This document shows, in pieces, positions 6,577 through 11,285 of a stretch of 48,199 nucleotides of DNA. The notes under the pieces were generated by a model. The model was not told where the DNA came from, searched no databases, and worked only from the letters and a program-made list of their open reading frames with translations. The first letter of the stretch is position 1. The number at the start of each line of letters is the position of its first letter. The position numbers were made by a program, and so were the translations under genes. The stretch covers positions 1-48,199 of the forward strand of contig CAVHWW010000047.1 in assembly GCA_963639715.1 (NCBI GenBank). The letters are read 5' to 3'. The stretch comes from Acutalibacteraceae bacterium (GTDB taxonomy: Bacteria > Actinomycetota > Coriobacteriia > Coriobacteriales > Atopobiaceae).

Positions 6577-6609
6577 TTCTTGCGGGATTACCCGCTAGCA
6601 CTTGAGCTC

Positions 6610-6647
6610 AAGCCCCGTAGGAGAAATCCTGCGGGGCTTTTTGTTTT
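6610..6647 (+). terminator. Intrinsic terminator after rplX, splitting the spc operon
   Basis: 11-bp stem GCCCCGTAGGA/TCCTGCGGGGC with GAAA tetraloop, followed by TTTTTGTTTT. Confidence 0.85.
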
Positions 6648-7055
6648 GACGAGCTTGGCTTGTGGGCTGTTCGCGTTCGCCCGTGGATTCATCTCGGCGG
6701 TTATCTCTAAAGCTGTTGAACGGGGGGTGCCTGCTTCATCGTCCCTGCTTGAGCGGCTAGACCCGTTCCGCACCTCCTTCCGGCTCGGGAAGCTCTGCTT
6801 GTGCTTCCGCTCTAACCCGCAAAGAAATCAGCATTGCCGCGATGATCGAGCGGCACGACGTGTTTCGCCATTCCGGCTTGGACGCCTCTAATTGTTGGGT
6901 GGCCCGAACCGGGGCACGCACCACATCGCCGCTCCGCGAAAATTTGCGCCGCTCGTCGGGTGGCTGTGGATAGCCAACAGGCCTTGGGGGACTCTTAGAG
7001 CCAAGACAGCGTCACCTGAGCGCGGGTAGTCCCGCGCAAGACGAAGGGAGCAACC

Positions 7056-7349
7056 ATGGGAGTGATGGCGGAAGAGAAGCTCGAAATCGGACCTGATGGC
7101 CTCGAGGGCTATCTGCGCTCCGCAACGCGCGTGTTCGCCAAGGTGGGGGAGGACACCTACTACGTCACCCACACTGACGGCTACTGGCGCGTGCAGGACT
7201 GCTCCAAGCTCAACGAAAAGGGCCACTTCACTGATTGCTCCGAACTCGTCCCCACGGTTGACGAAGTCTTGAACCTTCCGGCCCTTGGCGGCAAGACGCT
7301 GCTTGAGGTGGCCGGCGAGGCAGAGTTCTTCGAGAGCTTGCCCGAGTAG
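7056..7349 (+). CDS. Small acidic hypothetical protein (97 aa) between rplX and rplE
   Basis: AAGGGAG RBS 5 nt upstream of ATG; host-like GC3-rich codons; no recognisable catalytic motif. Confidence 0.75.
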   Translation: MGVMAEEKLEIGPDGLEGYLRSATRVFAKVGEDTYYVTHTDGYWRVQDCSKLNEKGHFTDCSELVPTVDEVLNLPALGGKTLLEVAGEAEFFESLPE

Positions 7350-7562
7350 GCTGGCGCTCCAGGAAGGGGTCTTCGCGAGGGCGCGGGCGACGCGGCACGG
7401 GAAGCGACGAAGGGAAGCGCTTCCCATATAGTCCGCGGGTGCCCGGCAACGGGCTAGCCAAGCGAGGAGAGATGGCGTCGCATTCGTGCGGCGCCATTTT
7501 TAGTGAGTTGTGTCAGTGTCGTGTGCGCGGGTGCCACCCTGCGGAAATGTACAAATTTGTAC

Positions 7563-7591
7563 TGGTAAATGGCCTCACAAAGGCATATCCT
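7563..7591 (+). promoter_or_regulatory. Putative promoter for the distal spc genes (rplE onward)
   Basis: TGGTAA, 17 bp, TATCCT; a promoter is expected after the 6610 terminator; shares an upstream CCTGCGRAAAT motif with the rplC promoter. Confidence 0.45.
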
Positions 7592-7736
7592 TATGAGCTG
7601 CACTGTGAAGGCTCCTGCCGATTAGCCGTCGAGCAGGAGGCATGAGGATAACGGGGCGCCCGGCACACGTGTTGCTAGCAGCGCAAACGCCGGCGTCAAC
7701 GCCAACCCCATGCTGAGAACCCCATAAGGAGTGAAC

Positions 7737-8297
7737 ATGGCTGAAGAGAAGTACGTCCCGCGCTTCAAGACCCTCTACAAGGACGAGGTCCGCGCCAAGC
7801 TCATCGAGCAGTTCGGCTACACCAACCCCATGACCGTTCCCCAGATCGAGAAGATCGTCGTGAACATGGGTGTCGGCGAGGCCGCTACCGATTCCAAGGC
7901 CATCGACGGCGCCGTTGCCGACCTGCGCACCATCACCGGTCAGCAGCCCACCATCCGTCGTGCCCGTAAGTCCATCGCTACCTTCCACCTCCGTGAGGGT
8001 CAGCCCATCGGCGCCAAGGTCACCCTGCGCGGCGACCGCATGTGGGACTTCCTGGATCGTCTGATCTGCGTTGCCATCCCCCGTATCCGCGACTTCCGCG
8101 GCATCTCTGCCAAGAGCTTCGACGGCCGTGGCAACTTCTCCATGGGCGTGACCGAGCAGCTCATCTTCCCCGAGATTGACTTCGACAAGATGGACCGCAC
8201 CCGTGGCATGGACATCACCATCGTCACCACCGCCAAGACCAACGAGGAGGGCAAGGCGCTTCTCGACGCCTTCAACTTCCCGTTCAAGGAGAACTAA
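7737..8297 (+). CDS. rplE: 50S ribosomal protein L5
   Basis: [39 protein letters not shown] 7737 after AAGGAG. Confidence 0.98.
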
Positions 8298-8401
8298 ACC
8301 TATTAGGTAATCCCGCTGCCGGAGCAATCCGGCAGCGTCGTCGCATAAGCGACATGGACAAAGCCGCATAAGGATGCGGCCGAAACCCAGAAGGAGGATT
8401 T

Positions 8402-8587
8402 GTGGCTAAGACATCGATGATCGTCAAGGCATCGCGTGAGCCGAAGTACTCTACGCGCACCCAGAACCGCTGCCAGCGCTGCGGCCGTCCGCACAGCGTG
8501 TATCGCAAGTTCGGCCTGTGCCGTGTGTGCTTCCGCGAGCTCGCGAGCAAGGGCGAGCTTCCCGGCGTCCGCAAGGCGAGCTGGTAG
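8402..8587 (+). CDS. rpsZ: 30S ribosomal protein S14, zinc-binding type Z
   Basis: 61 aa, CQRC...CRVC zinc ribbon, [12 protein letters not shown] start after AAGGAGG. Confidence 0.97.
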
Positions 8588-8626
8588 GACATCCGTCCCC
8601 AGCTCCAAGGGCAGAAGGAAGACTCC

Positions 8627-8666
8627 CGTTCAGGTGCTTGGGCCACGGGTTCAAGTAAACCGAGCG
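8627..8666 (+). promoter_or_regulatory. Candidate S8-binding mRNA element (16S helix-21 mimic) upstream of rpsH
   Basis: Hairpin CGTTC-A-GG-TGCTTGGGCC-acg-GGTTCAAGTA-AA-CC-GAGCG with the bulged-A / 2-bp / 2-nt-bulge / U-A geometry of the S8 site. Confidence 0.6.
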
Positions 8667-8698
8667 AAGAGGTTCATCCCTACCGAAGGAGAAACTCA

Positions 8699-9097
8699 AT
8701 GAACGTTACCGATCCCATTGCAGACATGCTCACGCGCATCCGCAACGGCAACACCGCCGGCAAGGAAGTCGTCAGCATGCCGTCGAGCAAGGTGCTCGTC
8801 GAGATCGCCCGTGTTATCACGGAAGAGGGCTACATCGAGGGCTACGCCGTCGAGGACACCAAGCCCCAGAAGACCCTGCACATCACCCTCAAGTATGGCG
8901 CTCGTCGTGCCCGCGTCATCCGCGGCATCAAGCGCATCTCTAAGCCCGGCCTGCGCATCTACTCCAAGGCCGAGGATCTTCCTCGCGTCCTCGGTGGCCT
9001 GGGCACCGCCGTCATCTCCACTTCCAAGGGCATGATGTGCGACCGCGACGCCCGTAAGCTCGGCGTCGGCGGCGAAGTCATCGCCTACGTCTGGTAA
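8699..9097 (+). CDS. rpsH: 30S ribosomal protein S8
   Basis: [32 protein letters not shown]. Confidence 0.98.
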
Positions 9098-9125: not shown

Positions 9126-9662
9126 ATGTCCCGCATTGGCAAGAAGCCTGTCCAGATTCCCGCCGGAGTCACTGTGACAGTCAATGGCACTAACGTCCAC
9201 GTCAAGGGCCCCAAGGGCGAGCTTGAGCGCACCTTCTCCGAGCTCGTGACCATCACGCAGGAGGGCGAGGAGATCATCGTCGCCACCGCTGAGGAGTCCC
9301 GCGACGCCAACGCCCAGCACGGCCTCGTCCGCACCCTCATCAACAACATGGTTATCGGCGTCTCCGCTGGCTTCCAGAAGCAGCTCGAGCTCACCGGCGT
9401 TGGCTACCGTGTTGCTCTCAAGGGCAAGGACCTCGACCTTTCCCTGGGCTACTCCCACCCCGTGATCTACAAGGCTCCCGAGAACATCACGTTCGAGGTG
9501 CCCGACAACACGCACATCAACGTGAACGGCATCTCCAAGGAGCAGGTCGGCCAGGTTGCCGCCGAGATTCGCATGAAGCGTCCTCCCGAGCCGTACAAGG
9601 GCAAGGGCATCCACTACATGGGTGAGCACATCCGTCGTAAGCTCGGCAAGGCCGCCAAGTAA
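9126..9662 (+). CDS. rplF: 50S ribosomal protein L6
   Basis: MSRIGKKPV, LGYSHPV, RPPEPYKGKGI. Confidence 0.98.
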   Translation: MSRIGKKPVQIPAGVTVTVNGTNVHVKGPKGELERTFSELVTITQEGEEIIVATAEESRDANAQHGLVRTLINNMVIGVSAGFQKQLELTGVGYRVALKGKDLDLSLGYSHPVIYKAPENITFEVPDNTHINVNGISKEQVGQVAAEIRMKRPPEPYKGKGIHYMGEHIRRKLGKAAK

Positions 9663-9731
9663 CGGCTTGCGCCCAGTAAGTCATAAAAGTCCGTCACCCT
9701 GTCAGGTGACGGCGTGACTAAGGAGAAACGT

Positions 9732-10100
9732 ATGAACAAGCAGCAGGCAAAGCTCGCTGGCTTCAAGCGTCGCCAGCGTCGCGTCCGCTCCAAGATTACC
9801 GGCACCGCCGAGCGTCCGCGCCTGTCCGTGCACCGCACGAACTCCAACATCTACGCTCAGCTCATCAACGACGTCGAGGCCAAGACCATCTGCAGCGCCT
9901 CCACGCTCGATCCTGAGTTCCGCGCTGCTGGCAAGCTCGGCTCCAACAAGGAGGCCGCCGAGTTCGTCGGTAAGCTCATCGGTGAGCGCGCCCTCAAGGC
10001 CGGCGTCGACACCGTCACCTTCGACCGTGGTGGCTGCATCTACCACGGCCGTGTCAAGGCTCTCGCAGACGGCGCCCGCTCCGCGGGCCTGAAGTTCTAG
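9732..10100 (+). CDS. rplR: 50S ribosomal protein L18
   Basis: [32 protein letters not shown] 9732 after AAGGAG. Confidence 0.97.
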
Positions 10101-10112
10101 GAGGTTTTAGTA

Positions 10113-10637
10113 ATGGCTCGTAACCAGAAGCAGCAGCGCGAAGCCTCCGAGCTTGAGGAGCGCGTCGTCTTCATCCACCGCGTGTCCAAGACCGTCAAGG
10201 GCGGTCGCCGCATGTCCCTCGTCGCCCTCGTGGTCGTCGGTGACGGCAAGGGCAACGTTGGCCTCGGCATGGGCAAGTCCGCTGAGGTGCCCCTGGCCAT
10301 CCAGAAGGCTTCCGACAACGCCAAGAAGAACATGTTCAAGGTGCCGCTGACCGAGACCGGCTCCATTCCCCACGACGTCATGGGTGAGTTCGGTGCTGCT
10401 CGCGTCCTCGTGAAGCCCGCCATCGAGGGTACCGGTGTTATCGCCGGCGGCCCCGTGCGTCCGCTCTTCGAGCTCGCTGGCATCAAGAACGTCCTGTCCA
10501 AGTCCATGGGTTCCAGCAACGGCCTCAACACCATCAAGGCCGCCGCTGAGGCCCTCAAGCAGCTCTCCAGCCCGGAGGAGACCGCCGCTCGTCGTGGTCT
10601 CACCGTCGCCGAGATGTTCGTCGGGAAGGAGAACTAA
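10113..10637 (+). CDS. rpsE: 30S ribosomal protein S5
   Basis: [26 protein letters not shown]. Confidence 0.98.
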
Positions 10638-10639
10638 CC

Positions 10640-10825
10640 ATGGCGAAGACCCTCAAGATCAAGCTCGTCAAGAGCCCTGTCTGTGGCGTCAAGAAGGACC
10701 AGACTGCCACCGTCCGCGCCCTTGGTCTCCACAAGGTCAACAGCGTCGTCGAGCAGCCTGACAACGAGAGCATCCGTGGGATGATCTTCAAGGTCAAGCA
10801 CCTCGTCACCGTGGAAGAGATTTAG
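10640..10825 (+). CDS. rpmD: 50S ribosomal protein L30
   Basis: [20 protein letters not shown]; operon order. Confidence 0.95.
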
Positions 10826-10835
10826 GAGTCACCCC

Positions 10836-11285
10836 ATGCAGCTTCACGATCTGCGTCCCAACGAGGGCGCTAAGAAGGCCCGCAAGCGTATCGGTCGCGG
10901 CAACGGCTCCGGCCACGGCACCACTGCCGGTCGCGGCACCAAGGGTCAGCTCTCCCGCTCTGGTGGCGGCAAGGGCGCCGGCTTCGAGGGCGGCCAGCAG
11001 CCGCTCGCGATGCGTCTCCCGAAGCTCCCCGGCTTCAAGAACCGCAACCGCGTCGAGTACGCTCCGGTCAACGTCTCCCGTCTCGAGGAGAAGTTCAACG
11101 ATGGCGATGTCGTCGACACCCAGAGCCTCGTTGCCGCTGGCATCATCAAGCGCGAGTACGAGCTCGTCAAGGTTCTTGGCGACGGCGAGATCACCAAGAA
11201 GCTCACCGTCAAGGTGGACAAGGTTTCCCCCGCCGCCCAGGCCAAGATTGAGGCCGCCGGCGGAAAGGTAGAGCTCCCGTGCTAA
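10836..11285 (+). CDS. rplO: 50S ribosomal protein L15
   Basis: GRGNGSGHGTTAGRGTKGQ, GFEGGQQPL. Confidence 0.98.
   Translation: MQLHDLRPNEGAKKARKRIGRGNGSGHGTTAGRGTKGQLSRSGGGKGAGFEGGQQPLAMRLPKLPGFKNRNRVEYAPVNVSRLEEKFNDGDVVDTQSLVAAGIIKREYELVKVLGDGEITKKLTVKVDKVSPAAQAKIEAAGGKVELPC

Follow-up and report, generated by a model that had tools for sequence, protein, structure and literature searches.

According to the accessible portion of PMC4176348, ribosomal protein S8 recognises 16S ribosomal RNA (rRNA) at a helix broken by an asymmetric loop whose nucleotides are conserved, and the S8 operator inside the spc gene cluster of Escherichia coli is a messenger RNA (mRNA) copy of this helix, helix 21 (PMC3616713, PMC4176348); overlapping the start of rplE, this operator blocks initiation at that point (PMC3616713, in the part available). 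As far as the available text of Fu et al. (2013) goes, the known S8-binding mRNA structure is confined to Gammaproteobacteria (PMC3616713), and excerpts of a 2024 review describe spc operon control in other bacteria as unknown and its phylogenetic study as not advanced (PMC10931766). The present analysis concerns a hairpin in the spacer between rpsZ and rpsH on contig CAVHWW010000047.1 of assembly GCA_963639715.1 (GTDB lineage Actinomycetota; Coriobacteriia; Atopobiaceae), whose whole analysed stretch of 48,199 nucleotides (nt) is referred to as the window. Judged by comparison across relatives, the hairpin is a real, conserved and covarying RNA element whose fixed residues are those defining the S8 site of helix 21, and it is probably an mRNA copy of that site serving as an S8 autoregulatory operator.

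With the E. coli operator, as described in the accessible parts of the same sources, the window hairpin shares its location inside the spc gene cluster, a bulged A, two Watson–Crick pairs, a closing pair and a 2-nt bulge whose last residue is the key A; the E. coli operator is bound by the operon's own S8, and the window hairpin is presumed to be bound by S8 also. The two differ in position, the E. coli operator lying at the rplE start in a coding region and the window element between two cistrons, before rpsH, as the sequence-only reading of this DNA had rightly stated; because the window element sits before rpsH, the genes rplN, rplX, rplE and rpsZ are upstream of the site. Scanning with a generic core pattern turned up nothing S8-like where rplE starts, the only matches on the window contig being at 8631 on the plus strand and at two places on the minus strand. 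Strand order differs too: the window element has the native order of the rRNA (5' AGGY ... RAACC 3', closed distally), whereas the E. coli operator is permuted, with the counterpart of the 640–644 strand placed 5' (A7–G12) and that of the 595–598 strand 3' (C79–U83). The distal stem and apex are variable in the E. coli operator, on the accessible text of PMC3616713, and invariant and of fixed length in Coriobacteriia. Because there is no sequence homology with the E. coli operator, an independent origin is probable.

More distant parallels include the S7 operator of the E. coli str operon, located between rpsL and rpsG, also an rRNA-like repressor site before its own cistron in a polycistronic mRNA (PMC10931766, in excerpt), which involves another protein and another RNA fold and has no homology to the window element. 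Eckert and Weinberg (2020) reported candidate ribosomal protein leaders (r-leaders), one of them for L31 in Coriobacteria, that are likewise lineage-restricted structured RNAs, identified comparatively and preceding genes for ribosomal proteins; neither S8 nor rpsH figures among the 20 candidates in the table of that article (PMC7247131, in part). In yeast, Rps22 (eukaryotic uS8) regulates its own gene through an RPS22B intron element, a stem with two bulge loops, which acts on splicing and not on translation initiation, and whose likeness to helix 21 is left unresolved in the available portion of PMC13232506.

The hairpin in the rpsZ–rpsH spacer

The following features were delimited, all on the plus strand and in window coordinates.

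8588–8698, plus strand: rpsZ–rpsH intercistronic spacer of 111 nt, bounded by the ends of the open reading frames (ORFs), carrying the hairpin
8623–8667, plus strand: full match to covariance model R1 (described below), 54.8 bits, E 2.2e-10
8627–8666, plus strand: hairpin P1, comprising a basal stem of 5 base pairs (bp; 8627–8631 with 8662–8666), an internal loop, a 10-bp upper stem and a 3-nt loop
8632, plus strand: bulged A, counterpart of 16S A595
8633–8634, plus strand: G-G paired with C8661 and C8660, counterparts of 596–644 and G597–C643
8635, plus strand: U paired with A8657, counterpart of 598–640
8643–8649, plus strand: apex CCACGGG (consensus YYANGGG)
8658–8659, plus strand: bulged A-A, corresponding to 641 and the invariant A642 of 16S
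8660–8661, plus strand: C-C, the 3' partners of G8634 and G8633

The basal stem consists of C8627–G8666, G8628–C8665, the wobble U8629–G8664, U8630–A8663 and C8631–G8662; above the core, U8635–A8657 is followed by nine more pairs and the loop A8645–G8647. The coordinates, spacer length and fold proposed in the sequence-only reading proved correct base for base, the U8629–G8664 wobble being the sole addition. The internal loop is asymmetric, with one unpaired nt on the 5' strand and two on the 3' strand, an odd total, as in the definition of the S8 site. The hairpin is both the minimum free energy (MFE) and the centroid fold of 8620–8675 (−22 kcal/mol, z −2.6), and 3 of 200 shuffles fold as well. 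The stability of the whole spacer is ordinary against shuffles (z −0.36), and a loose descriptor of the core by itself has 128 matches in the source genome, or one per 27.7 kilobases (kb) of strand, among which the window's copy has the longest helices.

Conservation and covariation within Coriobacteriia

Of 41 related genomes, 39 contained the rpsZ–rpsH stretch; the 30 loci retrieved have spacers of 87–123 nt, and 27 distinct spacers were aligned after L009–L011 had been dropped as identical to L007. RNAalifold predicted the same hairpin on this alignment, with 12 of 16 pairs changing on both sides. A hairpin-only alignment (MAFFT) of 26 distinct sequences, with L028 excluded for its longer apex, ran to 45 columns free of gaps; 90.7% of its cells were paired, against 26–42% with slid partners, 13 of 17 pairs changed on both sides, and the covariation score of 0.617 (0.264 in shuffles) was reached by none of 500 shuffled alignments.

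Covariance model R1, built from these 26 sequences, has one strong match in the source genome, that at 8623–8667 (next best E 3.4), and finds one site, in the same place, in each of five complete relatives; a second match in genome G009 (E 0.013) lies inside the enolase coding region and was treated as chance. Among 151 Coriobacteriia genomes sampled, 122 carried one strong site each, and all 39 matches for which loci were retrieved sit between the S14 and S8 genes. Among named loci of the class, 30 of 32 were matched, the match ending 30–35 nt before the AUG, in genera that include Olsenella, Atopobium, Lancefieldella, Collinsella, Eggerthella, Adlercreutzia and Denitrobacterium; R1 matched none of 48 named loci outside Coriobacteriia. 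The distance from hairpin to AUG is kept at 30–38 nt across the class loci. One further locus, on a contig titled Alloprevotella sp. (L189), encodes an Atopobiaceae-like S8 (83% identity) and has a strong R1 match (53.2 bits); this contig is probably mis-binned or mislabelled.

When R1 was run on 99 loci, 97 sites were obtained, 75 of them distinct. In the resulting class-wide alignment, which is fitted to R1 and hence leans towards structure, pairing extends to 89.8% of cells, 13 of 17 pairs show change in both partners, and the covariation score is 0.595 against 0.236 in shuffles, again reached by 0 of 500. The bulge nucleotides, on whose conservation in relatives the sequence-only reading depended, are fixed, with A8632 represented by A in 73 of 75 sequences and A8658–A8659 by AA in all 75. 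Outside the core the remaining 13 pairs show variation, two-sided in 11, and within it the U–A pair of U8635–A8657 type occurs in the window and its two nearest relatives only, a compensatory double change with respect to C–G. Summed over the alignment, 155 of 1268 paired cells are G–U or U–G wobbles, which would be A–C mismatches on the opposite strand, and the plus-strand RNA is therefore the folded species.

Correspondence with the S8 site of 16S helix 21

Base triples at the S8 site, as given in the accessible part of PMC4176348, comprise A595-(A596–U644), or G595-(C596–G644) in Thermus, and (G597–C643)-U641; the invariant A642 stacks on an S-T-S peptide of S8, and position 641 is free to vary. 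Alignment of the window's S8 to solved S8 chains places this S-T-S motif within ISTSKG. Because the source assembly (134 contigs, 82% complete) holds no 16S, the cognate helix 21 was read in relatives only, from 14 16S sequences aligned to E. coli rrsB. Four genomes of the same genus read A-GG-C / G-AA-CC, and a fifth reads A-GG-U / A-AA-CC, the exact core letters of the window hairpin; three other genera of the family read A-GG-U / A-UA-CC, and other families A-AG-U / A-(U/A)A-CU, A-AG-C / G-AA-CU or A-GG-C / G-AA-CC. The G596–C644 pair that the sequence-only reading had given for Coriobacteriia 16S is thus present in the same family (AGGC/GAACC in four genomes, AGGU/AAACC in one, AGGU/AUACC in three).

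In the 75 distinct mRNA sequences, the counterpart of G597–C643 is G–C throughout; the bulged A, where present, adjoins the counterpart of 596–644, also G–C in 75 of 75, the same A-(G–C) arrangement as in the relatives' 16S; and the counterpart of 598–640 is C–G in 72 and U–A in 3, never unpaired. On this base-by-base comparison, the fixed residues of the hairpin are those that define the S8 site, and because the core letters match the relatives' helix 21, the mRNA core is the motif that the S8 of this lineage already binds in rRNA. Helix 21 (588–603/634–651) and the hairpin have in common their core letters (with same-genus 16S), strand order and asymmetric loop geometry; helix 21 continues into a long distal arm, where the hairpin instead has its plain 10-bp stem and 3-nt loop. 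R1 does not match 16S.

Variant hairpins within the class

Twenty class genomes are listed without an R1 match, and the S8 gene could be placed in 19 of them. Five of these keep the hairpin with an altered bulge or an altered 641 position: L103–L105 have a U bulge and G-G-A-C-C, and L106 and L110 have G-U-A-C-C. Position 641 is accordingly A in the R1 matches, G in L103–L105, and U in L106 and L110, and position 642 is A in every form (75 of 75 R1 matches, and the variants as read by eye). Nine more, from families f14 and f16 (L108, L109, L111–L113, L116–L119), have a 5' strand reading R-A-G-Y-A-G-C with the same apex and 3' strand; by eye, their core is 5'-R-A-G-[Y-A]-G-C ... G-[A-A]-C-C-U-Y-3', with a 2-nt bulge between two G–C pairs. 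If bound by S8, this form would be a natural alternative solution to the S8 fold. Members of f14 and f16 are deep-branching in the class.

Related hairpins in other Actinomycetota

With default filters, R1 gave weak matches (E 0.014–0.045) in 10 of 140 other Actinomycetota genomes; none of the nine with retrieved loci lies near S8 or S14, the tenth is in genome G266, and all ten were treated as chance. The DNA upstream of rpsH was then inspected in 40 genomes of 39 other families. The tallies for these other Actinomycetota count some genomes flagged as unpublished (G266; G229, G185, G261, G296, G322, G201), which contributed no sequence and on which no particular claim depends. S14 stands upstream of rpsH in 38 of them, with a spacer of at most 34 nt in 27 and at least 51 nt in 11, and several of the long spacers carry a helix 21-like hairpin abutting the Shine–Dalgarno (SD) sequence. 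Six of seven genomes of family f38 (L172–L176, and L179, identical to L127) have CAGGC-[covarying stem]-GAACCGG just before the SD of rpsZ, not of rpsH, and their rpsZ–rpsH gap is just 10–17 nt, an arrangement that looks as if the operator, if such it is, had moved in front of a coupled gene pair. All four genomes of family f66 have the helix 21-like hairpin before rpsH, and f39 (8 of 8), f57 and f74 show a variant GGG-AA-G-(U/C)... form, read by eye only. Run with filters off on 84 kb, R1 recovered L154, L127/L179 and L173–L176, from two other families, at E 0.001–0.04, 15–25 nt before the rpsZ or rpsH start.

A looser core descriptor, with a background of one match per 4972 nt of strand in the source genome, matched all 20 named Actinomycetota loci from outside Coriobacteriia, each match ending 25–27 nt before the rpsH AUG, and none of 28 loci of other phyla. 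The 20 loci comprise 15 of Streptomyces together with Actinacidiphila, Streptantibioticus, a metagenome-assembled genome (MAG) of Nocardiopsaceae, Dietzia and an Actinomycetota MAG, and stand for about four independent lineages. Two Streptomyces loci, together with Dietzia and L155, have MFE folds of the same geometry as the window hairpin, and in L248 the same core is topped by a wholly different long upper helix. From these comparisons the element appears to extend beyond Coriobacteriia to other Actinomycetota; the lineage scope envisaged in the sequence-only reading therefore held for Coriobacteriia and was too narrow, related hairpins standing before rpsH or rpsZ elsewhere in the phylum. 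More tentatively, and with somewhat more doubt than belief, a helix 21 mimic of native topology before rpsH, or before rpsZ in a coupled pair, may be an old and widespread Actinomycetota trait independent of E. coli, to which Coriobacteriia would have added an invariant apex and a CAUC...GAAC box; such a trait would also explain how bacteria beyond Gammaproteobacteria regulate rpsH and the genes behind it in the spc cluster.

The invariant apex and the CAUC box

Downstream of the hairpin, and upstream of it within the spacer, the following features concern the approach to the rpsH start.

8603–8606, plus strand: CUCC predicted in the MFE fold to pair with GGAG 8688–8691 of the SD; kept within the genus only (by eye)
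8673–8678, plus strand: TTCATC box between hairpin and SD, nearly invariant in the 27-spacer alignment
8685–8691, plus strand: SD GAAGGAG of rpsH, 7 nt before the AUG

In the apex, A26, G28, G29 and G30 of the alignment are fixed in 75 of 75 sequences and positions 24 and 25 are always pyrimidines; the upper stem measures 10 bp in almost all class sequences. Because apex and stem length are invariant here and the distal stem is variable in E. coli, selection on something besides the known S8 contact is indicated. A search for apex look-alikes in 16S returned CUACGGG near E. coli position 342 as the sole shared match, to which no meaning was assigned.

With the SD, the box has the consensus yCAUCmnGAACsAwAGGAG and looks single-stranded; it is kept in most of 69 distinct tails, and in some families (L064–L067, L069, L079, L082) a small GGAC-loop hairpin stands in its place while the S8-like hairpin is retained. 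A second small hairpin, GUUC...GAAC, drawn around the box was not adopted, being broken in several lineages (by eye). In several lineages (among tails L001–L119) the box reads CAUCCCGAAC(C) and resembles loop C of the relatives' 5S rRNA (CCCAUNCCGAACC; CCCAU(U/C/A)CCGAACC), the likeness being CAU-N3-GAAC. Loop C of 5S rRNA is the site of the 5S-binding proteins L5 and L18, both encoded in this operon, and the likeness, noticed after the fact, is a weak lead that hints at a second sensed protein. The variable loop position shows no co-variation between box and 5S in five genomes, the mRNA has no closing helix, and the spacing between CAU and GAA in the window's own genus is 7 nt, not the 3 nt of loop C. 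Taken together, apex and box suggest a second contact, which might be made by the N-terminal domain of S8, for example, or by a second sensed protein. A box-like GUCAUCC-N-GAAGGAGG also stands before rpsZ in L004–L006.

Proposed mechanism and points against it

The genes around the spacer that enter the proposal are as follows.

8402–8587, plus strand: rpsZ, a 61-amino-acid (aa) zinc-type S14 with CxxC...CxxC (ORF; Pfam PF00253, E 6.6e-27)
8699–9097, plus strand: rpsH, encoding S8 (Pfam PF00410, E 7e-50), the proposed regulator and first regulated gene
9126–11285, plus strand: rplF, rplR, rpsE, rpmD and rplO behind rpsH (ORFs, Pfam), with gaps of 28, 51, 12, 2 and 10 nt

On the favoured reading, S8 in excess over free 16S rRNA would bind the hairpin core (A8632, G8633–C8661, G8634–C8660, A8658, A8659, U8635–A8657) with the same surface that it uses on the ribosome, and bound S8 would lower initiation at rpsH, which starts 32 nt downstream. 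Because the hairpin ends 18 nt before the SD, direct SD occlusion is not obvious, and the route preferred is that the S8–hairpin complex sterically hinders the docking of 30S subunits at the ribosome-binding site's 5' edge; the 30S footprint extends to about −35. Translational coupling across gaps of 2–51 nt would then reduce expression of rplF to rplO.

Several observations weigh against this reading. Across 59 distinct spacers, folding with the hairpin forced or forbidden changed the predicted unpaired probability little at either the SD (0.44 vs 0.46) or the AUG (0.62 vs 0.59), although this test is weak, since the hairpin is already present in the ensemble folded without constraint. In 12 genomes that offer both an mRNA and an rRNA core, the former does not follow changes in the latter and stays AGGC/GAACC where 16S reads AGGU/AUACC or AAGU/AUACU. 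On the accessible text of PMC3616713, the E. coli operator needs neither an invariant apex nor a fixed 10-bp stem. Within the class, L107, L114 and L121 have spacers of 21–30 nt that lack the element, and inspection found no motif in L115 and L120, which have long spacers, or in a named Atopobiaceae MAG (L194).

Alternative explanations

The best-surviving alternative, though an improbable one, is a conserved structure in the operon mRNA that does not act through S8, such as a processing or stabilising hairpin between rplN–rpsZ and rpsH–rplO or the site of another protein, with the likeness to helix 21 incidental. It would accommodate the invariant YYANGGG apex and the fixed stem length, which the known S8 contact leaves unexplained, and structured spacers are evidently common in this operon, the rplE–rpsZ spacer also carrying stable hairpins (z −4.4) that covary in the genus by eye. 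A stabiliser or RNase site, however, needs no bulged A, two G–C pairs and AA bulge fixed across a class, nor need it reappear elsewhere in the phylum, ahead of rpsH or rpsZ and with unrelated upper stems, and the letters that are fixed equal the core of the relatives' own helix 21; these points speak against the alternative.

Lower still in probability is a refolding switch, proposed in the sequence-only reading as the link between S8 binding and translation, in which GUUCAU (8672–8677) would pair with AUGAAC (8699–8704) and hide the start codon. The two hexamers are complementary, CAU is conserved wherever the box exists, and matching changes were seen by eye: CUCAUC occurs with AUGAGC in L027, L089, L091 and L106, and UUUCAUC with AUGAAG in L015 and L017. 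Elsewhere the flanking pairs are broken, with CUCAUC facing AUGAAC or AUGAAU in L005, L023 and L026, and GUCAUC facing AUGAGC in L030, L057, L061 and L062, so that beyond CAU/AUG the flanks covary (by eye) in some lineages only. In the window the AUG is predicted to be 0.79 unpaired and the 6-bp helix is absent from the MFE fold, whereas the SD is predicted 0.09 unpaired and paired with the genus-specific CUCC whatever the state of the hairpin; the 59-sequence folding comparison showed no effect of the hairpin on AUG or SD accessibility; and families that have replaced the box with a GGAC-loop hairpin retain the S8-like hairpin. Of the S8-operator interpretation as first advanced, the conserved helix 21-like element at a position other than that in E. 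coli is upheld, and its start-codon pairing link is not supported. A chance fold in a GC-rich spacer, for which the spacer's unremarkable overall stability and the 128 genomic matches to the core descriptor might speak, is contradicted by the covariation, the single genome-wide model match and the class-wide conservation, and its probability is negligible.

Novelty and significance of the candidate S8 operator

An S8 operator in this position had been thought new for the lineage, and the searches agree as far as they reach. Rfam 15 gave no match reaching a family's gathering threshold on the window, nothing meaningful at E ≤ 10 on 8350–8800 and no match on the 30 related loci, and a full-text literature search, whose scope did not extend to subscription journals and supplements, returned no description of an S8 site before rpsH. 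Rfam 15 also gave no match at E ≤ 0.1 on the E. coli rplX–rplE–rpsN–rpsH region (L262, NC_000913 3445800–3447800); because the E. coli S8 operator thus escapes every model in that library, the null result says little on novelty.

The element supplies a concrete candidate operator for an entire class of bacteria from gut and mouth (Olsenella, Atopobium, Collinsella, Eggerthella and others). If the S8-operator reading is true, the same regulatory problem would have been solved twice and independently, the second time at another position and with another strand topology, a case useful for the study of how rRNA mimics originate. The natural variants, with A, G or U at 641 and the form with a 2-nt 5' bulge, would map what S8 tolerates, and the covariance model would improve annotation of these genomes.

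Locus and genome context

The window's S8 shares 92% identity with the S8 in a record named Olsenella uli, and the next-best S8 matches are from Olsenella, Atopobium, Lancefieldella, Thermophilibacter, Collinsella, Eggerthella and Adlercreutzia, a placement in Atopobiaceae (Coriobacteriales). A consensus scan of 8200–8800, covering sigma-70-type sites as the only promoter class, found no promoter-like or terminator-like site. Fourteen RNA runs hold at most 0.11 of sampled words from this DNA; the metatranscriptome contigs of the four runs examined belong to relatives (88–95% alike in genes) and leave 8611–8657 uncovered, so they are uninformative on transcription, transcript ends and processing.

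Further upstream in the ribosomal operon, rplX and rplE are separated by a 1.15-kb gap (6577–7730) holding an ORF at 7056–7349 on the plus strand that encodes 97 aa with no Pfam match. The ORF is kept at the same place, at 74–85% aa identity, in all 11 further loci of the genus whose sequence extends that far upstream, or 12 counting the window; in other genera rplX lies about 100–340 nt before rplE, with no such ORF between them. The rplE–rpsZ spacer (8298–8401) folds into three stable hairpins (−47.6 kcal/mol), a stability matched by 0 of 200 shuffles; within the genus the stems vary in sequence and keep their pairing (by eye), and in other genera this position is taken by a single GC-rich hairpin or a short spacer.

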